DNA of 15,474 bases from a virus: the UHGV virus genome UHGV-0168751; one strand, written 5' to 3'. A program made the translations under genes and the position numbers. Position 1 is the first letter of the stretch; each line of letters opens with the position of its first letter. The notes under the pieces are model-generated. The model was not told the DNA's origin and searched no databases. It was given only the letters and a program-made list of their open reading frames with translations. Below are positions 1 through 13,574 of this stretch, in pieces.

Positions 1-44
1 CACGTAAGGAGTCGTCGGCAGCGTCAGATGTGTATAAGAGACAG
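1..44. other. Illumina Nextera adapter remnant: P5 tail fragment CAC, i5 index GTAAGGAG, read-1 adapter TCGTCGGCAGCGTC, Tn5 mosaic end AGATGTGTATAAGAGACAG
   Basis: Exact match by eye to the known Nextera read-1 adapter and mosaic-end sequence; the same string is present reverse-complemented at 15424..15474. The ATG at 28 and the MCIRDS N-terminus of the track ORF 28..1344 are adapter-encoded. Confidence 0.95.
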
Positions 45-1344
45 CCCCTGGATTATGAGTTTTGTTTTAGACGACGAAATTCATTTCTTTGCTACGAAAG
101 ACTACGTCGCACGTTGCGGGCGTGAAAACTTTGAAGCACGACTCGTCAAACGAGCTCAAGAACTGCTTTCTAAAATCGCTTTTCGTGGGAAAGACGAGAA
201 CGACAACCCTATCATTAAATACAAGAACGTTATCGATGGCTACAAAATCTTCGTTTACGAATGCCTCAATTCAGGTTGTTGTATTCAACGGATGTTTGAA
301 GAAATCCACCCACGACTCCCTGATTTATTAGTCGCATGGAACCACGAGTTCGATATTTCACGTATGTTAGAAGCTTTAGAAGCTGCGGGAATTCCACCGG
401 AAGACGTCTTCTGTCACCCTGATGTGCCGAAGCAGTACCGTCGTGTCTACTTTAAGAAAGACGAAGCATCGAAGAAAACGGAATCAAAGTCGTTAACAAA
501 AGCGCCTTCACAACAGTGGCACATACTTTACTGTACCGCATCGTTCTATTGTGTAGATGCAATGTGTCTATTCCGTTCATTGCGTGTTCATGAGGGTCAA
601 CGGCCTTCTTACAAACTTAATGCGATTCTGGAAACAGAGTTAGGTTTAAACAAGTTAGACTTACCGGAGCTGCCTTACGAGGAGAAACTGGAGTGGCACT
701 TAAAAGCACAAAAAGACTTCCCGTTAGAGTATTGCGTTTATAACATCTTCGATAACCTGATGATTGTTCTGCTCGATAAAAAGACGAACGATTTGTCTTC
801 AGCTATTTCGGTGTTGGCCGGTTATTCGATGTACGATATCTTCCCTTCTCTACCAAAACGAATTTGTATTGCTTACACCTATTACCTTTATGAACAAGGA
901 CTCGTTATCGGATGTGTAGGTAGTGCGATGCGTAATGACTTCGATAATGAGGTTATTGGTACAGACGGTTGGATTGTTACGCTCACGGCGTGTATGAACG
1001 CAGAGAACGGATTACGGAACATCATTAAGGAAGTTGATGATTTCTACACGGCTTTCCGTGGTCAAACCGCAGATGCCGACTTAACTCAGGCTTACCCATC
1101 AGCAACAAACATGATGAATCAGTCTCGTGAAACAACGTTAATCGAACTGTTAAGTATTCATGGTGTTCCTGAAGAAGTCCGTCGTCGAGTCGGGATTAAC
1201 CTTACTGCGGGACGTGTTAACGCAATGGAAATCGCAACGGATTTCTTCTTGTTACCTGATAAGAATACCGTGCTGGAAGCTTTCCTACGCCGTCAAGGAG
1301 AGACAATCACCGATCCTTTTGAATACATCAAAACCGTCCACTAA
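45..1344 (+). CDS. Putative 3'-5' exonuclease-like protein (DEDDy/RNase D-like N-terminal domain, unknown C-terminal part); 5' end probably truncated by the fragment boundary
   Basis: Frame is open from the first genomic base; first Met at 55. Exo I-like LDDE at 67..78, Exo II-like N-x-x-F-D (WNHEFD) at 337..354, LG-x-x-K...W...Y-x3-D pattern with YNIFD at 739..753. Stop TAA 1342..1344 is followed by a terminator hairpin. No polymerase motifs seen downstream. Motif match is by eye only. Confidence 0.45.
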
Positions 1345-1360: not shown

Positions 1361-1392
1361 CCCTACTCCTTCGGGAGTAGGGTAATTCTTTT
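1361..1392. terminator. Bidirectional intrinsic terminator between convergent genes
   Basis: 9-bp stem ccctactcc/ggagtaggg (1361..1369 and 1374..1382) closed by a TTCG tetraloop; T-run on plus strand 1383..1392 and A-run 1346..1360 (T-run on the minus strand). Confidence 0.7.
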
Positions 1393-1900
1393 AAGCCGCG
1401 TTGAAACAGTAAGCCAGTAACTGTTGCAGCTCAGGATCGGTTACGCGTTGCAACATGCGACCAACGTTATCACGTTGCGCAAAGTTTGCTTTATCCTGCG
1501 CATTTGCGAAACGCACTAACATGTTGATAAAGACAACATATGTTTCACGTTCTGCGGAATCGTGGAACCAATCTAAATGGTAGTTCACATTCGGGTAGTA
1601 GAAGATACCACGTTTGTGTTTAATTGCCGCTTCAACAAACACGTTGAACGCATCGATGAATGCTTGGCCACGGAGTTCGAATAACGTACGGAACGACTGA
1701 TGCAGTTTACGGAAAGCATCGTCAGCTTCAGCACCGTCTTTTGGTTTATTCTGACCGATTGCGCTGCCAGCTTCATCGAGTTGGGTAGCGATCAAGCGCA
1801 CTTGATACGCGTCGTCCTGGCTGTAAGTTACGGCGGCTTCTTCAGCGCGTTTTACTGCGGACGGACGTGCATCTTGTGTTGAAATATCTTTAGTTGCCAT
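1391..1900 (-). CDS. Hypothetical protein (169 aa)
   Basis: ATG start at 1898..1900 with TAAGGA Shine-Dalgarno about 13 nt upstream, overlapping the stop of the upstream gene; stop lies in the T-run of the 1361..1392 terminator. Confidence 0.6.
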   Translation of the reverse strand: MATKDISTQDARPSAVKRAEEAAVTYSQDDAYQVRLIATQLDEAGSAIGQNKPKDGAEADDAFRKLHQSFRTLFELRGQAFIDAFNVFVEAAIKHKRGIFYYPNVNYHLDWFHDSAERETYVVFINMLVRFANAQDKANFAQRDNVGRMLQRVTDPELQQLLAYCFNAA

Positions 1901-1913
1901 TGGTTAATAATCC

Positions 1914-3215
1914 TTACGTAATGTGGATCAATGGATTAAATTCGTGTACCACAGTCTCTTTACCGTGCATCGCGGCCATTGCCACGGACATAACGTTAGA
2001 GAACGCCGAGGAAATATCCGCAGCGATTGCGCGAGGTTCTTCCCCTTTATTCGCAGACGCGCACGCTGTGCAGCAGTCGATGTGGCCGTATTGACATAAG
2101 ATGGGTCGGCGTAATCGTACCACTTTACCTAACTGTTGCTTTAAATATTCCTCAGTCAGTGGTGTTAATTTACCATTCACCATCGCGTTCATTCCAACGT
2201 AACGCTTCACGTTATCCTCGGTAATCACAACCGGGTACGTTAATTTCGTTCCGCAGTCGCCAGGAACAATTCGATGGTTCTGGAAAATCATCTGGATGAT
2301 ACGTACCTGTTCACCCCCTTTCGCGGTTTCCGCACCACGAGAGAATGAACCCTCGCGAATAGAGTTGAATTTCGCGACCAGGTTTTCCATCCCTGCCTTA
2401 TCCACCTCAACCAGCGCGTTCGGAATGAGCGTGTAATGCCCACCTTCCTGGAAAGATGATTCAATACCATACATCAACATTAGCTTACGTCGACGCATCC
2501 GTGATTTCGGCGAGTTATAGAATTCAATAGATTGGTCTCCCGACAACCATTCTTTATCGAGTTCATCCAACGCCTTTTCAATCTTAACAATAACCGCAGG
2601 ATCGTCTAACTCGTCTTTGTGCTTCAACAATAACGCATCACGGATTTTATACGCATCAGGATGCACTGTAAGGCTTCGTAACGTACCCGTTGGTGCAATA
2701 CCTGACGTAAGCGGTGCAAGTTCGTGTAAGCCACTTACAAAGCGCTCAATCATGCTCGGACGAATCGCACCTTCGTTTTCCGGCTCATCGGTTTCGTGGT
2801 CTAAACAACGACGATGCATCTCTTTGCGATATTCCAACGGGTTTTGTGAAATCGCCAGATACGGTAAGCGCGTACCGAATGCGTACCAGATAACAATCCA
2901 GTTAAAGATATAACGTCCTACGGTAGTAGGAATCGGTCCTTCTAATCCTGGGTAGTCATCCACCTTCAGCTCGAACTGTTCTTCGGGAATAAACAGTTCT
3001 TGGTCTTTTACGCCGTCAGTAATCGGTTCCCAACTACCCTTGCCATCTTCTACAGCGTAGTAATGCGGCAAACCGTCAATATACGTAATATCAAACGCTT
3101 CGGGTTCTTCACGCCCCGTTGGAAACACCGACATGTTAAAGATAGCAATACGCCAGACCAGGCGACGCCATGCTTCGGCTTTACACGCAGCCACTAAGAA
3201 CTCAAATCTCGTCAT
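1914..3215 (-). CDS. Hypothetical protein (about 433 aa from ATG at 3213..3215; track ORF begins at a TTG at 3233)
   Basis: Long open frame; strong SD GAGGAGG (revcomp of 3224..3230) sits 9 nt upstream of the ATG at 3213..3215, which would lie inside the coding region if the TTG start were used. Overlaps the upstream gene stop by 14 nt. Confidence 0.6.
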   Translation of the reverse strand: MTRFEFLVAACKAEAWRRLVWRIAIFNMSVFPTGREEPEAFDITYIDGLPHYYAVEDGKGSWEPITDGVKDQELFIPEEQFELKVDDYPGLEGPIPTTVGRYIFNWIVIWYAFGTRLPYLAISQNPLEYRKEMHRRCLDHETDEPENEGAIRPSMIERFVSGLHELAPLTSGIAPTGTLRSLTVHPDAYKIRDALLLKHKDELDDPAVIVKIEKALDELDKEWLSGDQSIEFYNSPKSRMRRRKLMLMYGIESSFQEGGHYTLIPNALVEVDKAGMENLVAKFNSIREGSFSRGAETAKGGEQVRIIQMIFQNHRIVPGDCGTKLTYPVVITEDNVKRYVGMNAMVNGKLTPLTEEYLKQQLGKVVRLRRPILCQYGHIDCCTACASANKGEEPRAIAADISSAFSNVMSVAMAAMHGKETVVHEFNPLIHIT

Positions 3216-4056
3216 CGTGTTCTGCCTCCTCAACCTGATAAATCACCCGTAGACTTTTTAAAGCAGGTTGTAGAACAGTGATAGGTTGTAACCCATCATT
3301 ATTAAGTTTCTCTAAGTTCGTCGAAAGATCGGCATACGCATCGTCGAAGTCATCGTTATCGATAATCGATAGCCCTACCGTATACATCTCGAGCAATTCC
3401 GTTTCGCTGTAATCCTCAACATCAAACACCAACGATTGTTGGACAACGGTCAAGTCAGGATCTTCGGGTAAGTTTAAGAATACGAACGCAGAGGGGTTTT
3501 GTGGATAAAGTCGTAAATATTCTGCGATACGTGACAGTCGCGCGTCGTTACCTGTCGAGAGTTGTTCATCCACAGCCATTGCTGAGAGGTAGTTACGCAT
3601 TACTGTCATCACACGAGGAGAAACACGAATGACCAAATCTTCAAAATGGATATTATCGTCACCGTATACATAACGGCACATGCTTTCCAGGATATACTCT
3701 GGTGTTTCACCAGACATCACCAGACCGTATAACGTGTCGGTGTCTTCGAACTCTTCGAACTTAGACGTTATACCGTCCAGAATACGTACTGTCTCTTTCG
3801 GCTTACGGAAGACTTCTTGTGGGTTTAAAGCGACGCCTAAACGGTTACCTAATGCTACAGCGCTTTTTACAATAATCCCTTCCAGTCTTACAGTTTCGTC
3901 CGCAGGATCAGATGACGGTTGCCAATACACATCGCTTAACGCAACATCGTAACCGTAATCCATGCACAACGTCACTAAATCCAGGAAAGGCGCAGCACGT
4001 TCTTCCGCACGATTGACGGTAAGAACGGCAGCGTAATCGGTATAAATGTCAATCAT
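3202..4056 (-). CDS. Hypothetical protein with acidic C-terminus (about 284 aa from ATG at 4054..4056; track ORF begins at TTG 4068)
   Basis: Long open frame directly downstream (minus sense) of the 4091..4133 terminator; only a weak SD-like GGAAAAGG before the ATG; start choice is uncertain. Confidence 0.55.
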   Translation of the reverse strand: MIDIYTDYAAVLTVNRAEERAAPFLDLVTLCMDYGYDVALSDVYWQPSSDPADETVRLEGIIVKSAVALGNRLGVALNPQEVFRKPKETVRILDGITSKFEEFEDTDTLYGLVMSGETPEYILESMCRYVYGDDNIHFEDLVIRVSPRVMTVMRNYLSAMAVDEQLSTGNDARLSRIAEYLRLYPQNPSAFVFLNLPEDPDLTVVQQSLVFDVEDYSETELLEMYTVGLSIIDNDDFDDAYADLSTNLEKLNNDGLQPITVLQPALKSLRVIYQVEEAEHDDEI

Positions 4057-4137: not shown

Positions 4138-4443
4138 TTAATTTTTCAGCTTAAGTTCTTTCTCCAAACCTTGTAGCTCTGGGTCACCGGCAGTAACGTC
4201 ACTCATGACTTTCTTAATCGCGGCTTTACGGCGATTAAGCACACGGAGCATCATCATGATTTCCCACCGTGGTCGATTTAACCACTCATCGAAAGTCATT
4301 CTGAAATGCTCGCCTATCTGCTCACGCAAATACACTTCCATCCAGATTTCGTACAAACTCCCATACTCGGGGTTTTCAAAATCTGATAAGCCAACGTGTT
4401 TCGTCCCGGTGTCTAGACCGACTGATAAATCGTACGCACCCAA
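4138..4443 (-). CDS. Hypothetical small protein (101 aa), questionable
   Basis: The only in-frame start is TTG at 4441..4443 with a poorly spaced SD-like AGGAAG; no in-frame ATG until residue 35. Retained only because the region would otherwise be non-coding in a dense genome. Confidence 0.3.
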   Translation of the reverse strand: MGAYDLSVGLDTGTKHVGLSDFENPEYGSLYEIWMEVYLREQIGEHFRMTFDEWLNRPRWEIMMMLRVLNRRKAAIKKVMSDVTAGDPELQGLEKELKLKN

Positions 4444-6521: not shown

Positions 6522-7094
6522 TTAACCCTCTGCTTCAACGACAGTATCCGGTTGTTTTACAGCCTGTTCAGCTTGCTGTAGAAGTTCATACGCTTCAGCG
6601 AACGTACTGCCCTGCTGCATTGCACGTTTTACAAAATCAGCACGGCTGTTGTAGAGTGACAAGATTTCGATCGCAGCGCCCTGAATATCTTTGCCCAGGA
6701 ACATCGCATCGGTTTCCAGGTTAGTCACCAGCAGCGTATCCAGCTCGTATTGCTCTTTGACTTTGGCCCAGTTTGCACTTTCCAGCAATGCTTTGGATTT
6801 GCTTGCCACTTCGTCAATCGCAATCAGTTTGGCACCCAGCTTCTCTTTCCCTTCTGCCATCAGGCCCACGAAAGCCGCTTTCGCTTCTTCTAATGCGTTA
6901 ATGGCAAATTCTTTATATTCGGGTTCTTGCAGCGCGTCCAGAATCTCACGTTCTTTGTCAATACGCTCAGCCAGGATTTTCATTTGGTCTTCAAACAGAA
7001 TGACCAGTTTATACACGTTCTTCACGCTATCACGAAGTGATTTCTTCGCCAGAGCACGTGGGTTATAAGCGGGTTTCTTTTTACGACGTGACAT
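6522..7094 (-). CDS. Hypothetical protein (190 aa) with basic N-terminus (MSRRKKKPAYNPR) and helical, charged remainder
   Basis: ATG at 7092..7094 with AAAGGAA SD 9 nt upstream; lies immediately downstream (minus sense) of the 7111..7142 terminator. Confidence 0.65.
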   Translation of the reverse strand: MSRRKKKPAYNPRALAKKSLRDSVKNVYKLVILFEDQMKILAERIDKEREILDALQEPEYKEFAINALEEAKAAFVGLMAEGKEKLGAKLIAIDEVASKSKALLESANWAKVKEQYELDTLLVTNLETDAMFLGKDIQGAAIEILSLYNSRADFVKRAMQQGSTFAEAYELLQQAEQAVKQPDTVVEAEG

Positions 7095-7110
7095 TTTTAT
7101 ATTCCTTTAA

Positions 7111-7142
7111 CAAAAAAGAAAGGGTGTACACAATATACACCC
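7111..7142 (-). terminator. Intrinsic terminator (minus-strand sense)
   Basis: Stem gggtgta/tacaccc (7122..7128 and 7136..7142) with 7-nt loop, followed in the minus sense by a T-run (plus-strand A-run 7111..7121). Confidence 0.55.
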
Positions 7143-7154
7143 GTTCTGTACTTT

Positions 7155-7538
7155 TTAACCGTTATCGTGAGGAACGGTTACCCAGCTGTGCCATTTCTCG
7201 GAGTATAACCGATAAGCCACTTTCGGGTTTTGGTCTACACTCCCTGCGGGGTTTTCAACCCACAGCACCCAGCTATACAGCTCGTAAGACGACGTATTAC
7301 GAATACTGGAGTTACGTGTGATGTAATAACATTTACCTCGTTGAAAAATCTGCATTCCTGCGTAGTGTTCATTCACCATGTAATAGTGAAACGCAACGCT
7401 CATCACAGGATCGGTGCAGAGTTTATTTACGACGTCTAAAACGTCGGGATACGCCTTTAAAACTTTTTCGAGAAAACTTGCTAAGTTCAGACCGGCATAC
7501 GGCGCGGTTGGCTCTGTTGGCTGCGGCGGTAGTAACAT
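7155..7538 (-). CDS. Hypothetical protein (127 aa)
   Basis: ATG at 7536..7538 with strong SD AAGGAAAG; start lies 116 nt inside the 3' end of the helicase gene in a different frame. Confidence 0.55.
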   Translation of the reverse strand: MLLPPQPTEPTAPYAGLNLASFLEKVLKAYPDVLDVVNKLCTDPVMSVAFHYYMVNEHYAGMQIFQRGKCYYITRNSSIRNTSSYELYSWVLWVENPAGSVDQNPKVAYRLYSEKWHSWVTVPHDNG

Positions 7539-9132
7539 CGGCTTTCCTTACAATATACGGTGAGGTGGCTATCTTAAACGACAACACAGAATCACTCAGT
7601 GACTTTTGACGCGCATTCAAGTAATTGCAGTGTTTCGGTATCGAGTAAGAATGGAATAACCACACAACGGGATCGAGTTCACCCCAATCGTTGTGGAGAA
7701 TCTTACGTGGGCGTCCGGCCATCTGGCGGTTTAACTGTTGGTCTTCCACAGGGGTGGTAATGTACATGTGAACCAACCCCGGTTTGTCAACCGCAGTACC
7801 CGCTTTCCCTGGTGTTGAAATAGAGAAATCCGCTTGAATAAAGTCGTCATACGAATCCCCTGCGTTATATTTCGCAACCATTAATGCATGGAACTTATCA
7901 GACTGTGCAAGTTTCTCTCGCACATATTCCGTAAAGAATTCACACATCGCAACTGTTGCAAACAACACCAATACTTTCTGACCAGGTTGATAACCTGCCA
8001 GATACGTCCGTTCTATCACGTCCCAGACCATATCCGCGTACGACTGATGAAGGTTTTCGCTAATCAACTTCCCTTCAAACAGTTTGTGGTTATACGGGGT
8101 CATCTTCGTTGCCCACCACGCAAACCGCTTATTTTCAATTCTGTAATACAACGCTTTCACATGTACCGCAGGAATAATCGGAATGGTGATACGTGCCTCT
8201 TGTGGGAAACGTTCTTTATACCGTTCTGCCAAGAATGCTTTTGATTCGCCCGGTTGGAGTGTGGCCGACATTTCGACAGAAGGTGGCGGATTCAACATAA
8301 TTCCAGCCATGTACACCAAGTGGAAATGTTCGTGCACTTCGTCCATCGATAAAAACCCGACACCTAACGTGTTATAGAAATCATCGATGTTCACTGGATT
8401 AGTCGCAGCAGTATTGATATACTCTTTCAAAAACCGCTGTAACGTCACCGTAGAGACGATAATCACTTTGATGCCACGTTTATCCAGCTCACCACTTTCA
8501 CCCATTTCTAGCGCTTCGTAGACCGCTTGTACGCCCTGTATAACCAGGACGTCTTCTTTCGATTCACGAAGGCCAGTAGGATCTTCCGTTAAGTCGAATA
8601 ACCACTTGGAAATATATGTGGGCCGATGAATCAATAACGTTCTTACCCCTTTACGAACCATCACCTTCATGTTGGTTTTCGACTTACCCATACCGGTGCC
8701 GATTTCAAAGATGGTTTGTAAACGGTTCGGCTGACAGGCCGTTTCGACAACCCCATTCTGATAAAAGAAACGTGACGACTCATCCTCTTCTATCATGTTA
8801 AAACCGTAGTTTTCAAACGTACAACGGTAAGGGGTTCCTTGGGTTAAGTGATGCTCGTAAAGTTTGAAGTCAATTGCAAACTCAGCAGCCGTTCGGTTAA
8901 TAATGATTCGTAAACGTTCGGAAAAATTCCGGTGGAATATAAAAGTACGGATAGAAGGAATATGCGCGTAATACGGATCACCACGTTCGGTAATAATTCT
9001 TCCGTATTGCTTGCCCATTTTCGGGGCGTGCATATTCTCTTCTGCCCACTTTAAGATTGCCGACTCTATAGGTCGGCAAGGGACTTCGACCCTCACGCCC
9101 ATACTCGTAAAGGTCATGTGGAATTCGTACAT
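7423..9132 (-). CDS. Superfamily 2 DExH-box helicase/ATPase (569 aa), nucleic-acid substrate unknown
   Basis: Motif I GTGMGKSKT, motif II DEVH, motif III SAT, motif IV-like VLVLFATV, motif V-like STPGKAGTAVD, motif VI QMAGRPR, in canonical order and spacing (core about 7693..8715). ATG at 9130..9132 with strong SD AAGAGGGGAG. Basic C-terminal tail RRFRRRK. Confidence 0.8.
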   Translation of the reverse strand: MYEFHMTFTSMGVRVEVPCRPIESAILKWAEENMHAPKMGKQYGRIITERGDPYYAHIPSIRTFIFHRNFSERLRIIINRTAAEFAIDFKLYEHHLTQGTPYRCTFENYGFNMIEEDESSRFFYQNGVVETACQPNRLQTIFEIGTGMGKSKTNMKVMVRKGVRTLLIHRPTYISKWLFDLTEDPTGLRESKEDVLVIQGVQAVYEALEMGESGELDKRGIKVIIVSTVTLQRFLKEYINTAATNPVNIDDFYNTLGVGFLSMDEVHEHFHLVYMAGIMLNPPPSVEMSATLQPGESKAFLAERYKERFPQEARITIPIIPAVHVKALYYRIENKRFAWWATKMTPYNHKLFEGKLISENLHQSYADMVWDVIERTYLAGYQPGQKVLVLFATVAMCEFFTEYVREKLAQSDKFHALMVAKYNAGDSYDDFIQADFSISTPGKAGTAVDKPGLVHMYITTPVEDQQLNRQMAGRPRKILHNDWGELDPVVWLFHSYSIPKHCNYLNARQKSLSDSVLSFKIATSPYIVRKADVTTAAANRANRAVCRSELSKFSRKSFKGVSRRFRRRK

Positions 9133-9143
9133 GCTCCCCTCTT

Positions 9144-9171
9144 ACAAAAAAAGAGGGGCGCAGGCCCCTCT
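9144..9171 (-). terminator. Intrinsic terminator (minus-strand sense) between the beta-prime-like gene and the helicase gene
   Basis: GC-rich stem gaggggc/gcccctc (9153..9159 and 9164..9170, extendable by one A-T pair), 4-nt loop, followed in the minus sense by TTTTTTT (plus-strand A-run 9146..9152). Confidence 0.7.
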
Positions 9172-9174
9172 CGT

Positions 9175-11274
9175 TTACTCAATGATAGTCGCGGCCACCG
9201 TATTGTCGTATAACGACGCCGGACGTTTACGTGACGTATAGAAACGCACGTTGTCCAGGTTTTTCTGTTGGCCTTCGAATAACAACATCGGTACAGCTGA
9301 ACGTATCGCAATCAACGTGTTGTGATCTTCGAAACGTTTACCGTCCATGATATCTGCGTCTTCGCTATCAAACCCAACTGCCGGGAAAGGATTGGTTGGT
9401 GACTCAACGCGAGATATCGCCAGCATAATCGCGATGTGTGTCATCGGAATACCACCGAGCTTACGCTGAATATACTTAAACACATCAAACAACGCATGTG
9501 TACATTGTTTTTCCGTAGCACCGCGCATCTGAACCAGTGTTGTGGGTTTTACTTTACCCGACTTCTTGCTCAAACGCATTGAGTCATCCGAGAACTGTTC
9601 GAAAGTATCCGATTTATCAGAAGCAACCGAACGAAGTTTCAATTCTAACCCTGCTACGAACTCCGCCATAGATTCAGACCGATTCGTATAAATTAGTATC
9701 GGCCAACTCGGTTTCCAGCCTTTCAGTGGAATCCGTACCAGTTTCTTCGACGGGAACGTAATGTTATCACGCTGCTTCAGGAAGAAATGCAAGAAGGCTT
9801 TCGAGAAGTTACCACAAACCCCCATACGGACGTCGATGGGATCTTCAGCCAGTACATTCCCGGCTTCATCCATCCGCAAAAAGGTCAGTTCGTTAATCTC
9901 CGGCAACGCCGTTTCGTCAATCACTTCCAAATCGTCATGGTACGCGATTTGGCTGATTTCAGAATAGACTTCATCGGAAATAACGAGTTGGTATTCATCC
10001 CAATTACCGTACTGCGGTTTCTCTCGTAAACTTAGACCTTTTACAGAGTTGTGTTTATACTCCCCAAGATAATCCCGCATTCTTGGGGTCAGTACCAGAT
10101 TCAACAGATAGCGCAAGAAGTCTAAATGTTTCGTTGAGAGAATCCCCTGGGTACCCTTTTCAGATATCGAGGTTGAGGCCAAGTGACCTGGTGACGTTCC
10201 CGGCGAAAGGTTATAAATCAAATCACCCATGCAGGTTGCACAAATGCTTTGACGCGCCATCCCCTTACAACACATCGCAGTACGGAACTCAATAGGTTTG
10301 CCTAAGACTTTCTCAAACTCCCCTTTCTCGAATCGTAGCCACGGACCTCCCATGCCTTCAAAACGATAACGCATTCCCACCATCGCATCGTACTTCTTAC
10401 GCTCCAGTTTACTTTCTGTAAACGTGTGGCGATGAACGTGATGCGTACCACAATCGTCGTATTCGAAATACATTAACACGTTGGCTGCTAACTGTAGCTT
10501 ACGTGACGCGTATTCCGCATCGGCGATTTTATCGGTATTATAAAGATGAGAACGTGACGTTGCCCCGGCTTCCTTCAGGCGGCTAATTACGGAATGCAGA
10601 CCCGTAAAGAAACCTTCCCATACCTGGTTAGAATAAACGCGGGAATCAATCTCGGATGTTTTCCCACGTATATACGCCTGAAGAACCTGGTTCATTTTGA
10701 TGGTCTTATCCAAGACCGACATCACCACAGGGTTTAAACGAAGTTGTGGGTCTTTGAAGATATCCTCGATAAGAAGATATGCTTCCTCAACCATATCACG
10801 ACCTTCTTCGTCGTACCCAGTAGGATACATTTGTGCCCACTGATGAATCTGCGTAAAGTTTCGGTGTTGGTAAATTTCCATCATCGTATCGTAGTCAATC
10901 GTGACGCAATACGACAACAGATTTTTCACCGACAAGTTAAACGCATCCGCATAAACGTGCTGCTGCAATAAGTAACGAGTGTCTGCTAAATCCACGCCCG
11001 CTTTACGTGCCGCCACAGCTGCCAATGACATAAACTTCAGATGTGCGTCATCTGTCGCGGTGTCACCATGTTTATACGCCATCTGTGAACTGATTGGGAT
11101 CTGCGGATAAAATCGTGTTAGACCCCAATAAGGCCAACTTATTTTAATGTGGCGTCCTGACATGTTTAAGGTTACCCCATCGTCGAACGTCACTTCATAT
11201 CTGCCGCGTAATAGCCACACCTGATCCGAGTTCAGTTTACACAAATCACGCACGTGAACTGGAGTGCCCTTCAT
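9175..11274 (-). CDS. Multisubunit RNA polymerase beta-prime-like protein, C-terminal module (699 aa)
   Basis: Trigger-loop-like segment ASTSISEKGTQGILSTKH (about 10120..10197) resembles the bacterial SIGEPGTQLTMRTFH; a weaker bridge-helix-like segment lies about 130 residues upstream, matching the bacterial spacing. No Asp-triad catalytic loop, so the N-terminal beta-prime module is not here. ATG overlaps the upstream stop (TAATG). By-eye similarity only. Confidence 0.6.
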   Translation of the reverse strand: MKGTPVHVRDLCKLNSDQVWLLRGRYEVTFDDGVTLNMSGRHIKISWPYWGLTRFYPQIPISSQMAYKHGDTATDDAHLKFMSLAAVAARKAGVDLADTRYLLQQHVYADAFNLSVKNLLSYCVTIDYDTMMEIYQHRNFTQIHQWAQMYPTGYDEEGRDMVEEAYLLIEDIFKDPQLRLNPVVMSVLDKTIKMNQVLQAYIRGKTSEIDSRVYSNQVWEGFFTGLHSVISRLKEAGATSRSHLYNTDKIADAEYASRKLQLAANVLMYFEYDDCGTHHVHRHTFTESKLERKKYDAMVGMRYRFEGMGGPWLRFEKGEFEKVLGKPIEFRTAMCCKGMARQSICATCMGDLIYNLSPGTSPGHLASTSISEKGTQGILSTKHLDFLRYLLNLVLTPRMRDYLGEYKHNSVKGLSLREKPQYGNWDEYQLVISDEVYSEISQIAYHDDLEVIDETALPEINELTFLRMDEAGNVLAEDPIDVRMGVCGNFSKAFLHFFLKQRDNITFPSKKLVRIPLKGWKPSWPILIYTNRSESMAEFVAGLELKLRSVASDKSDTFEQFSDDSMRLSKKSGKVKPTTLVQMRGATEKQCTHALFDVFKYIQRKLGGIPMTHIAIMLAISRVESPTNPFPAVGFDSEDADIMDGKRFEDHNTLIAIRSAVPMLLFEGQQKNLDNVRFYTSRKRPASLYDNTVAATIIE

Positions 11275-13511
11275 TATTCATCGCCCCTTTTCATTTTCAC
11301 CAATTCAAACCCTTCGCAGTTGTGGATGTTTTTCATCATCCTGTCAATCTGTGAATCCCCTAACGGGAATTTATTCCGGTCTACCAGCGGACCCGGATTA
11401 GACGGGGTTTGAGATCGATAAAGCCCTACTAAAATCTCACGATGCACCGCAGGGTTGTTTGCCCTATCGTGAACTTCTTCGTAGTTACCTGGACCATAAC
11501 CCGCTAACAGTCGTTCTTCCGAAGGACCAGCCCATTTTAGCGTTTTATAGTTTATCGGATACGAACCACGGCCTTGGTTAGACGCGTCTATCGTGCCCAG
11601 ATAGTTCAGGTACATTGACGAGATACTGGAAAACTCACGGCCTGTTTTATCCAGACGTAATGTTTCCACACCGCCCACGTAAAACTCGTCTTTTGTCCAT
11701 TCCTGTTTACCGTCGAAATTAGTAATCAGGAGTTTGGATTTACGCGGTTTAAATTCACCTAACCGTTCGCTGATATCGACAGGTGTGTCATCCAGCTCAT
11801 GCGGCAAATAGATACGGATTGTAAAATCGTAAATCTCTTTAAAGAGTTCGCGTTGTAAATCCTCCGTAGGATGCGTTACCTGTAGTGTATTGGCCCAATC
11901 AGGATTATAACGTGACAGATAATCCATCAGGATTTCCCAGCTCTCACTGATACGCCCTTCATCCAGCATTGGTTTAAGACGCATCTTCAGCTGCTCAGAC
12001 GCCGCTGACCAATACATGTGGAACAGTGCTGCATAAGTCGAACGACGAATTACAGCGTTCATCGAACGTAAAACATGAACACGTTCACCGAATTCGTTAA
12101 TCGGCATCTGTTCAACGGGTAATACACGTCCAACAATCCCTTTCGTACCCGAACGGTCAGTAATCTTAGACGATACCGTTACCGGGATCGGATAACGAAC
12201 CGCAATACGAATAGTATACGTATTGATGGGATCGCTGAGTCCACGTTGTACTGGTGAGGTCAACTTAGAAAGAATCTGTTGGCTAACATTTTCTTTACCG
12301 TATTCACCACGACGAATGGCTTCATCAATCACCACGCGAATCTCTTCACGAAATTCGTGATAGACTTCGTAGGTTTCAGATGCAAACGCTTTTTCCAACA
12401 ACACACACGCTTTCGGTGACCAGATAATATTTTTGTCACGAGACATCGAGAAATAGAATCGCACAATGGCATTGTAATAATCTTTCAATGCTAATGCGTA
12501 TTTATCTAACTCTCGTTTGTTCTCTTCAGTACAAGAAATATTGTTAGTCCCATTCGCACAGGACGTTTCATCGCGCCACACCTGAATGTCCACGATACGT
12601 GTACCGCTACGCTCCATCAGTTCTTTGTCACCTGCCAGCCGCGCTTTATAATGGACGGGATCGGCATCCACATATTCGCAACTATCAAAGAACGGTGAAA
12701 CGTGTTGGGTTTCCCCAAGCGTCGCATCAATCGCAGCGTAAAGTTCATCGAAACGACGTGATGCAATAACCAACCCGTCATCACGAATAGCTTCGCCCAC
12801 ATCCGGGAAATAACGAGGAACGCGATTACCGTTCGGATCGTTATACCCATAGGTGTCTAACAGAAACTCATCTTCACGCAACGTTTTCTCGATGATTTTC
12901 AATCCATACCCGTGAAGCTTTTGTGCGGCGTATTCAGAAATGGTGTAGGAATCCTCGATAATGTCAGGATGCGAAATCGTAACGGTGGGTAGCACTACGC
13001 TGTCAGCGTATTCTCCTTCTACCATGCACGGCATCGTTGTAAGGATTTCATCTTTTTCCAACTGATCGGTTTCACCACGCAAAATACTGCGCAGTTTCAT
13101 CGATTCATGTTTCTCAGATGAGAAGATGTTGTCGTGATTGGTATAGAAGTTAATCTCCAACACGTCTATCATGGTTTTACCGCCTTTCATTTCTGCGCGG
13201 CGGAAGAAGATAGCGTGCTCCAGTGCTTTAGAATCCCCACGGCGTCCATAACGTGTAAACGTTGCACGACGCTGACGACCGTCTTTGGTCATATAGTGAC
13301 AGATGCTACCGGGATCTTCTACAACGTCGTTGAACAGAAAATCGTGGTAGTTTATATCTGCCCCTGTAAAATGTGGTGATGGTTCAGGATTGTCAATGGG
13401 GACCGCAGACTTCATATGGTTGCCTACCATCGATGCCCTTGCACCGGATACTTCGGTGATGTTAATCTCACGGTCAGCTACACTGCTCATTAGCTCTACT
13501 GGCGTTTTCAT
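11274..13511 (-). CDS. Multisubunit RNA polymerase beta-like protein, C-terminal module (745 aa)
   Basis: Residues 451-490 DRSGTKGIVGRVLPVEQMPINEFGERVHVLRSM (about 12042..12161) align with the conserved beta segment [33 protein letters not shown]; the C-terminal KWAGPSEERLLAGYG resembles beta EVWALEAYGA. Motif position implies only the C-terminal roughly 740 residues of a beta subunit. ATG at 13509..13511 with AAGGAG SD. Confidence 0.75.
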   Translation of the reverse strand: MKTPVELMSSVADREINITEVSGARASMVGNHMKSAVPIDNPEPSPHFTGADINYHDFLFNDVVEDPGSICHYMTKDGRQRRATFTRYGRRGDSKALEHAIFFRRAEMKGGKTMIDVLEINFYTNHDNIFSSEKHESMKLRSILRGETDQLEKDEILTTMPCMVEGEYADSVVLPTVTISHPDIIEDSYTISEYAAQKLHGYGLKIIEKTLREDEFLLDTYGYNDPNGNRVPRYFPDVGEAIRDDGLVIASRRFDELYAAIDATLGETQHVSPFFDSCEYVDADPVHYKARLAGDKELMERSGTRIVDIQVWRDETSCANGTNNISCTEENKRELDKYALALKDYYNAIVRFYFSMSRDKNIIWSPKACVLLEKAFASETYEVYHEFREEIRVVIDEAIRRGEYGKENVSQQILSKLTSPVQRGLSDPINTYTIRIAVRYPIPVTVSSKITDRSGTKGIVGRVLPVEQMPINEFGERVHVLRSMNAVIRRSTYAALFHMYWSAASEQLKMRLKPMLDEGRISESWEILMDYLSRYNPDWANTLQVTHPTEDLQRELFKEIYDFTIRIYLPHELDDTPVDISERLGEFKPRKSKLLITNFDGKQEWTKDEFYVGGVETLRLDKTGREFSSISSMYLNYLGTIDASNQGRGSYPINYKTLKWAGPSEERLLAGYGPGNYEEVHDRANNPAVHREILVGLYRSQTPSNPGPLVDRNKFPLGDSQIDRMMKNIHNCEGFELVKMKRGDE

Positions 13512-13574
13512 TTTAATGCTCCTTTAGGTTGATTCGGTAGGATAATATCTATCTCACTTATTTTAGGAACGATT

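Follow-up and report, generated by a model that had tools for sequence, protein, structure and literature searches.

A conserved terminator and ribosome-binding-site element between the RNA polymerase and helicase genes of SPN3US-like jumbo phages: a possible RNA switch limiting helicase translation

Genes and signals at the polymerase-helicase junction

The stretch of DNA analysed here (the window: 15,474 nucleotides of the virus genome UHGV-0168751) carries on its minus strand two RNA polymerase genes followed by a helicase gene. The first one encodes an RNA polymerase beta-like subunit of 745 residues (11274-13511; phrog_3295, 2.6e-253; Pfam RNA_pol_Rpb2_6, 1.9e-05) and the second one a beta'-like subunit of 699 residues (9175-11274; phrog_3015, 2.9e-224); the homologs in phage SPN3US are gp34, annotated as the RNAP beta subunit, and gp35, annotated as the beta' subunit. 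The helicase (7423-9132; 569 residues; phrog_16, 4e-50) is of the SF2 type with GxGKT and DEVH motifs, and its start codon is confirmed by the homologs, which align from residue 1. These family matches bear out the labels given to both neighbours in an earlier reading of the sequence, in which an RNA polymerase was placed upstream and a helicase downstream. A further RNAP beta-like subunit gene lies downstream in the window (1914-3233); it is a homolog of SPN3US gp42, which is presumably a subunit of the virion RNAP and hence would be a late-type product.

Some other features of the locus are worth recording. As called, the helicase ORF shares 116 nt (7423-7538, minus strand) with the ORF that follows it (7155-7538), and a similar gp36/gp37 overlap is annotated in SPN3US; the start of the small downstream gene is uncertain because it is annotated shorter in pEa_SNUABM_9 and CR5. 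The helicase of several relatives (L162:1456-4257, L163 and L031; EC001, JN03 and Kwan) has an in-frame insertion of about 350-360 residues after residue 150 or so, and the CDS of those in GenBank (EC001, JN03, Kwan) measures about 2.7 kb. Since this insertion contains Hint and LAGLIDADG homing endonuclease domains (Pfam LAGLIDADG_3, 1.2e-10), it is regarded as an intein, which the helicase of the window does not have. Finally, a strong hairpin of 11-12 bp with T-runs on both strands (1358-1385) separates the convergent DNA polymerase-like gene (28-1344, plus strand) and ORF 1391-1900 (minus strand), and is probably a bidirectional terminator.

The transcription unit that holds the junction appears to begin at the putative early-promoter motif TAGATATTATC (13541-13551, minus strand), an exact match that precedes the first RNA polymerase gene by about 30 nt. 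The motif cAGATAGATATTATCT is found in SPN3US 25-75 nt upstream of about a dozen genes, gp34 among them, with plus-strand copies at 4430, 7393, 15617, 15710, 23813, 28972, 72489, 72687, 92543, 109896, 174957, 184047 and 191605; some copies are palindromic and stand at divergent gene pairs. The early promoters of jumbo phages have been described as AT-rich motifs of about 10 nt (PMC7598289), and it is because of their fit to this description that TAGATATTATC and cAGATAGATATTATCT are read as early promoters; the AT-rich cAGATAGATATTATCT is likely to be the early (virion-RNAP) promoter consensus of SPN3US-like phages. No early-promoter motif was found between the polymerase genes and the helicase, which has no copy of its own. 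The genes for the non-virion RNAP are early genes in phiKZ and AR9 (PMC7598289) and, by comparison with these phages, the polymerase genes at this locus would be early as well. Virion proteomics of SPN3US assigned gp34 and gp35 to neither of the polymerase sets.

Read on the minus strand, the junction consists of TAA (9177-9175), ACGA, GAGGGGC, CTGC, GCCCCTC, T7, GT, AAGAGGGG, AGC and ATG (9132-9130), and the order of elements described by the original prediction is present as such. The terminator 5' arm occupies 9164-9172, with the core GAGGGGC at 9170-9164 and two further bases, GA (9172-9171), that can extend the stem. It is followed by the loop CUGC (9160-9163), which differs among relatives, and by the C-rich strand GCCCCUCUU (9151-9159), composed of the terminator 3' arm (9159-9153) and the first two U of the U7 tract (9146-9152). 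The stem is G+C-rich, the loop short, and the hairpin begins 4 nt past TAA and ends in T7, as in intrinsic terminators; a terminator scan gave 9 pairs (6 G-C), a 4-nt loop and a T-run, which places the hairpin among the best terminator-like sites of the window. A T-run followed by GT was also considered as a motif placed after terminators and discarded (2 matches in the window versus 1.4 expected).

The C-rich strand is shared, because it can pair either with the terminator 5' arm or with the ribosome-binding region of the helicase, AAGAGGGG (9136-9143). In the alternative hairpin, CCCCUCUU pairs with AAGAGGGG (9151-9158 with 9136-9143) through 8 bp of exact complementarity, just as had been proposed, and the 3' part of the U7 tract lies in its 7-nt loop. 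A search of positions 8900-9400 against Rfam gave no family at E <= 10 for the junction, and one chance-level sRNA match elsewhere in the stretch.

Conservation and specificity of the three sequence blocks

Megablast of the region against GenBank phages gave no match, and relatives were gathered through the helicase protein (identity 51-100%). The helicase marks a family of jumbo phages of enterobacteria with genomes of 220-250 kb, and that of the window is 100% identical to the one of metagenomic contigs of about 225 kb. Members of the family are SPN3US and SPAsTU (Seoulvirus), phiEaH2, Stratton and Asesino (the last one classified as Erskinevirus), Huxley, Machina and pEa_SNUABM_9 (Machinavirus), Wellington and Kwan (Wellingtonvirus), and CR5 and EarlPhillipIV (Derbicusvirus).

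Every enterobacterial member examined keeps a common layout: TAA, N3-8, GAGGGGC, a loop of 4-5 nt, GCCCCTC, a T-run, N2-7, GAGGGG(C/T/A), N2-3 and ATG. The 16-17 distinct junction variants span Seoulvirus, Erskinevirus, Machinavirus, Wellingtonvirus, Derbicusvirus and the lineage of the window itself (at least five genera), and all 21 block positions (GAGGGGC, GCCCCTCT and GAGGGG) are invariant among them; at the start of the helicase gene of the same phages, 3 of 60 third-codon positions and 36 of 60 second-codon positions are invariant. The variable parts are the spacer before the stem, the loop, the spacer between the T-run and the RBS, and the spacer between the RBS and AUG. The distance between the second and the third block ranges from 9 to 14 nt, and the loops, always of 4-5 nt, are CTGC, CATGT, CTTGC, AGAT, ATCT, ACCC, CTTGT, TCCG, CACGT and CCCGT, to which CACGC, CGTGC and CAGGT are added by other relatives. 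The blocks were scored by means of anchored regular expressions; MAFFT placed the 5' arm one column off in the variants with a 4-nt loop.

Two Vibrio phages are the only outgroups with a recognisable helicase N-terminus. They keep a terminator with a different stem, and for their RBS, GGAGAG, a weak pairing is predicted with the first part of the U-tract, so that both hairpins would coexist there instead of excluding each other. About 2 kb downstream of the junction, before the next gene, another intergenic hairpin, GGGTGTATATTGTGTACACCC followed by a T-run (7094-7155, minus strand), is partly conserved. In the corresponding regions (loci L009-L013), the stem persists in SPN3US without its U-tract, it is altered in Machinavirus and Wellingtonvirus, and another hairpin stands in its place in Derbicusvirus; the core of the window's hairpin, TATATTGTGT, is not repeated genome-wide.

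The conservation foreseen for the three segments is, as described above, complete in the enterobacterial homolog loci; the covariation that was to be looked for along with it is not seen, as no compensatory change was detected in either core helix among the 16-17 variants. This is so because every pair is invariant, and such invariance is expected of a strand with two partners, as any change in a three-way pairing would need two simultaneous compensations. Support for the element comes from invariance, uniqueness, energetics and a clade-limited complementarity between loop and AUG, and not from covariation. Outside the core, the second position of the tail has changed to C in the Derbicusviruses and the matching position before the RBS to G (U-A to C-G), while the adjacent pair is lost.

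Regarding the loops, 5% of all 4-nt loops make the alternative fold of the window as stable as its native loop does. When loops were replaced by all 4-mers or by 400 random 5-mers, this fraction was 0.01-0.32 (median about 0.08) for the window, Seoulvirus, Erskinevirus and Machinavirus, and 0.29-0.83 for Wellingtonvirus and Derbicusvirus, in which the complementarity between loop and AUG is absent. The native loops of the first clade would thus stabilise the closed fold unusually well, a signal that is only suggestive because the lineages are related; for the same reason the Fisher value of about 6e-4, combined by hand from lineages that are not independent, is not a real probability. Sister Machinaviruses have either AGAT (L008, L173, L175) or ATCT (L174, L176, L021) as loop, which are exact reverse complements, with the spacer unchanged, and this indicates an inversion of the loop between perfectly inverted arms rather than co-evolution. 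Covariation between loop and start codon, enriched in one clade and absent in Wellingtonvirus and Derbicusvirus, is taken as supporting evidence only for an extended closed helix, since loops change or invert without any change in the spacer. The CAUGU loop of PhiEaH2-like phages and Asesino (L003/L167) contains an AUG located 4 nt past the SD-like GAGG of the 5' arm, which opens a mini-ORF of 9 codons (MCPSFFVEG) ending at a UAG just before the helicase AUG; this mini-ORF is not conserved in other lineages and was discarded as a functional candidate.

The arrangement is more than chance. The stem GAGGGGC...GCCCCTCT is also present in more than 120 other viral contigs, and among 93 terminator-like sites with the same stem found elsewhere, a single one has GAGGGG within 45 nt downstream. 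This exception carries the junction and the helicase start of a locus of the same family (L031), which leaves 0 of 92 apparently unrelated sites. GAGGGG is the RBS of only one of the 262 putative gene starts of SPN3US, namely the helicase, the usual ones being GGAG, AAGGA and AGGAG, and GAGGGGC occurs three times on the plus strand of that genome versus about 14 expected, two of the three copies being at this junction; a dispersed DNA-binding motif was rejected on account of this rarity. The duplex formed by the 3' arm and the RBS at the helicase junction of SPN3US reaches -19.5 kcal/mol, versus -8.6 or weaker at nine other junctions and -4.8 +/- 2.5 for mismatched pairs of arms and RBSs, none of which is as strong as the helicase junction. 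Judging by the established anti-SD sequence, 16S rRNA pairs with no more of GAGGGG(C) than its GAGG; the invariant GG of the RBS and the following C or U match the CC and G of the arm, beyond the pairing with 16S rRNA. The base after GAGGGG pairs with the G of the arm in 15 of 16 variants (C in 9, U in 6), the A of the window being the only exception. A weaker junction of the same logic was observed in SPN3US upstream of gp185 (about 168129-168180), with the order GAGAGGTAGCC, TACG, GGCTACCTTC, T7, GTTGAAGAAGGA and, further on, ATG; there, the arm and tail CCUUCUUC can pair with the GAAGAAGG RBS (-8.6 kcal/mol).

Predicted folding of the read-through RNA

The energies given here are nearest-neighbour predictions for naked RNA, and the barriers, obtained with findpath, are upper bounds. 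For a 66-nt read-through RNA of the window, the structure of minimum free energy (-19.8 kcal/mol) is the SD-pairing hairpin and not the terminator, and the ensemble is composed of the alternative fold (about 85%) and the terminator (about 15%). Evaluated separately, the terminator has -14.3 (7 bp) to -16.8 kcal/mol (9 bp) and the bare alternative of 8 bp has -13.6 kcal/mol. UGC/GCA and C-G pairs lengthen the alternative fold and bring the AUG into it, as U9162, G9161 and C9160 pair with G9134, C9133 and A9132, beside and inside the start codon. The prediction places SD and AUG in a stable helix whose other strand lies upstream in the longer transcript, as is characteristic of RBS masking.

With other flank lengths, the balance between both folds of the window ranges from 0.08 to 1.0, and these swings imply that they are nearly isoenergetic. 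Moreover, the whole 66-nt fold is not unusual when compared with shuffled sequences (z = -1.37), so that energy alone cannot carry the case. The energy difference between alternative and terminator in 11 lineages goes from -7.2 to +4.3 kcal/mol; the alternative is dominant in seven lineages and within about 1.2 kcal/mol in three, and this dominance or competitiveness is stable over flank sizes in PhiEaH2-like phages, SPN3US, SNUABM_9 and Phobos. At Wellington-type junctions the terminator is favoured by about 3-4 kcal/mol. The predicted equilibrium between folds is, then, not conserved among lineages. The stability of the SD-pairing alternative, on which the original prediction hung, is nevertheless far from negligible: it is the minimum free energy fold in the 66-nt RNA and is dominant or competitive in 10 of the 11 lineages.

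The order of transcription determines what this competition may affect. The terminator hairpin is formed first, leaving the RBS open, because it is transcribed first, and the alternative fold does not pass 50% until the RNA extends to about the AUG. Since the RBS lies 3' of the U-tract and is transcribed later, SD pairing cannot sway termination. The two structures are, as originally noted, mutually exclusive on the read-through RNA, although the alternative does not compete with the termination decision. An attenuator or a terminator/antiterminator riboswitch was discarded for the same reason, as the competing strand (9143-9136) comes after the U-tract (9152-9146), and no aptamer or leader family was recognised. 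Once formed, either fold could persist: the barrier along the direct path is about 10-17 kcal/mol into the closed fold and 12-22 kcal/mol in the opposite direction, and with barriers of this height the RNA could be kinetically trapped for anything between seconds and a time far beyond the lifetime of the mRNA.

The upstream stop codon is located 3-7 nt before the stem in all lineages, and a ribosome ending translation of the polymerase ORF would therefore stand on the 5' arm or close to it. When the RNA was masked up to +9, +11 or +13 nt, counted from the first base of the stop codon as a conservative ribosome footprint, the probability of SD pairing was 1.0 in all seven lineages analysed, Wellington included. 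Classical translational coupling was discarded on this basis, because the masking strand is 15-19 nt beyond the stop codon and the ribosome would cover the 5' arm, thus closing the RBS.

A possible terminator and translational lock

The reading that we prefer, with a probability of roughly 0.55, is that the three-strand element may act both as a terminator and as a translational lock on the helicase in read-through transcripts. GAGGGGC, the loop, GCCCCUC and U7 would end most of the transcripts of the beta and beta' genes, begun about 4.4 kb upstream at the putative early promoter. On the RNA that reads through, GCCCCUC(UU) could leave the 5' arm and pair with the RBS of the helicase, (AA)GAGGGG(C), which is a repeat of that arm. 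In many lineages the terminator loop is also predicted to pair with the start-codon region, in which case the SD and often the AUG would be buried. Occupancy of the 5' arm would tip the RNA into the closed state, and the candidate for this role is the ribosome that finishes the polymerase ORF. We infer termination at this site, the closed fold in vivo, a reduced translation of the helicase and the ribosome as the trigger. The coupling between read-through and helicase translation put forward originally fits a translational device of this kind and does not fit a terminator/antiterminator switch, coupling and direction both being deduced from the predicted folds. The helicase made in spite of the lock could be the result of a kinetic window, of a partial equilibrium, or of a shorter RNA produced from a minimal promoter or by a cut in the U-tract.

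A stricter version of this mechanism, which appears quite doubtful, is a one-way latch actuated by the ribosome, whereby the history of beta' translation would limit the helicase output of each mRNA (inverse translational coupling). It would suit phages that form a nucleus: as transcription takes place apart from the ribosomes, the terminator hairpin would already be folded, and the helicase RBS exposed, when the read-through mRNA enters the cytoplasm. The ribosome that is first to complete the beta' ORF would then melt the base of the hairpin, and the RBS would capture the C-rich arm. Such an RNA would stay closed because of the return barrier of 12-22 kcal/mol. To our knowledge, no example of inverse translational coupling of this type has been described.

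Several known systems resemble parts of the proposed lock. Hairpins mask the SD or AUG of the T4 genes e (lysozyme), soc, 49 and I-TevI on read-through transcripts (PMC3014915), and the likeness lies in a strand transcribed upstream that engages the SD and/or AUG of the gene that follows, the read-through RNA being poorly translated. The masking strand of T4 is an ordinary leader, and an internal late promoter makes the open mRNA (PMC3014915). At the junction, on the contrary, the mask is the terminator's descending arm, for which the 5' arm competes as a third strand, and there is no evident internal promoter. In translational riboswitches and in the TRAP-controlled trpE of Bacillus subtilis, sequestrator/anti-sequestrator platforms hide or free the RBS. 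The junction is similar in that a single strand has two possible partners, the RBS being accessible when the upstream one is paired and closed when the RBS itself is; it differs from these platforms in having neither an aptamer or ligand domain nor an Rfam match, and in that the anti-sequestrator helix is a complete terminator. A fold-back hairpin over the start region is also known to inhibit transposase translation on read-through transcripts of IS10 and IS50. These elements share with the junction a start-region hairpin that guards a gene from translation on transcripts begun upstream, although their genetic context is different and they use two strands and no terminator, versus the three strands found here.

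As a terminator, the junction is canonical in its G+C-rich stem of 7-9 bp, its loop of 4-5 nt and its U7 placed directly past the stop codon. Unlike ordinary terminators, which drift in a compensatory way, its stem is frozen across genera and duplicated as the RBS of the next gene. Hairpin-type terminators with measurable read-through have been mapped for the phage RNAPs of phiKZ and 201phi2-1 (PMC10914365, PMC11512511). SPN3US and Asesino have been shown to build a phage nucleus (PMC13282480), and transcription is consequently taken to be separated from translation in these phages. The three-strand terminator/RBS arrangement did not come up in the literature consulted on neighbouring subjects; compared with known cases of RBS masking, what would be new is the use of a terminator arm as the mask and of the ascending arm as an anti-sequestrator copied in the RBS.

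Other explanations have to be weighed against the lock. An ordinary terminator followed by an ordinary strong RBS, with each block conserved separately and the complementarity as a by-product, is considered unlikely. Any purine-rich Shine-Dalgarno sequence is naturally complementary to a C-rich arm with its U-tract, and this explanation accommodates well the weaker complementarity at another SPN3US junction (-8.6 kcal/mol) and in the Vibrio outgroup, the lack of covariation in the core, the commonness of GAGGGGC/GCCCCTC as a terminator stem in unrelated phages, and the ordinary position of the 66-nt fold among shuffles (z = -1.37). However, it leaves unexplained that GAGGGG follows 0 of the 92 apparently unrelated terminators with the same stem, that the helicase is alone among 262 genes in having this RBS, with a GG(C/U) beyond what 16S pairing accounts for, and that its duplex exceeds that of every other SPN3US junction by more than 10 kcal/mol. 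Furthermore, a terminator under selection for structure only should drift as the neighbouring hairpin does, whereas 21 positions are frozen here while synonymous sites are saturated. Strict invariance of sequence in the absence of structural covariation is also what a binding site predicts, and the direct GAGGGGC repeats with their inverted copy might be bound by a phage or host protein, as a DNA operator or as an RNA site for a regulator or an export factor, in which case binding instead of refolding of the RNA would account for the invariance. This is very improbable: a rigid multimeric binder would not tolerate the variable spacing of the blocks (loop of 4-5 nt, then 9-14 nt), GAGGGGC is under-represented in SPN3US and unrepeated elsewhere, and the orientation of the loop is flipped in sister phages, as a hairpin would allow.

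A temporal switch like that of T4 e, soc and 49 looks rather unlikely. According to it, the early read-through RNA would be closed and a later and shorter RNA without the C-rich arm would be translated, its source being either a minimal promoter of the non-virion RNAP within the junction or an endonuclease cut in the single-stranded U7. Besides the T4 precedent (PMC3014915), it is favoured by the middle and late promoters of phiKZ, which are almost sequence-free (a start-site TATG or a weak AT-rich motif; PMC7598289), so that a promoter inside the junction might carry no recognisable sequence. The helicase without an early-promoter motif of its own and the presence of the RNAP beta-like gene 1914-3233 among the genes further downstream point in the same direction. 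Nevertheless, the junction, of 42-50 nt, is wholly taken up by the terminator and the RBS, it contains no conserved promoter-like motif (TATG is found in some lineages only), and TTTTTTGT is not enriched in the window.

Little is understood of how nucleus-forming jumbo phages regulate their genes, and control built into the mRNA may weigh more in them than in ordinary phages, because their middle and late promoters are nearly sequence-free and their transcription is separated from translation. The element described here is computationally well supported as a conserved and specific structure, and it looks like an RNA switch that would limit the translation of the helicase. If confirmed, it would unite a terminator and a translational lock on read-through transcripts in one small natural part, of possible use in the design of synthetic operons. 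It is, moreover, an example of a terminator whose sequence, otherwise free to drift, can be frozen by a three-way pairing constraint. Being short, frozen across at least five genera and located between the polymerase and the helicase genes, the element probably sets the ratio or the timing of the phage RNA polymerase with respect to the replication helicase.
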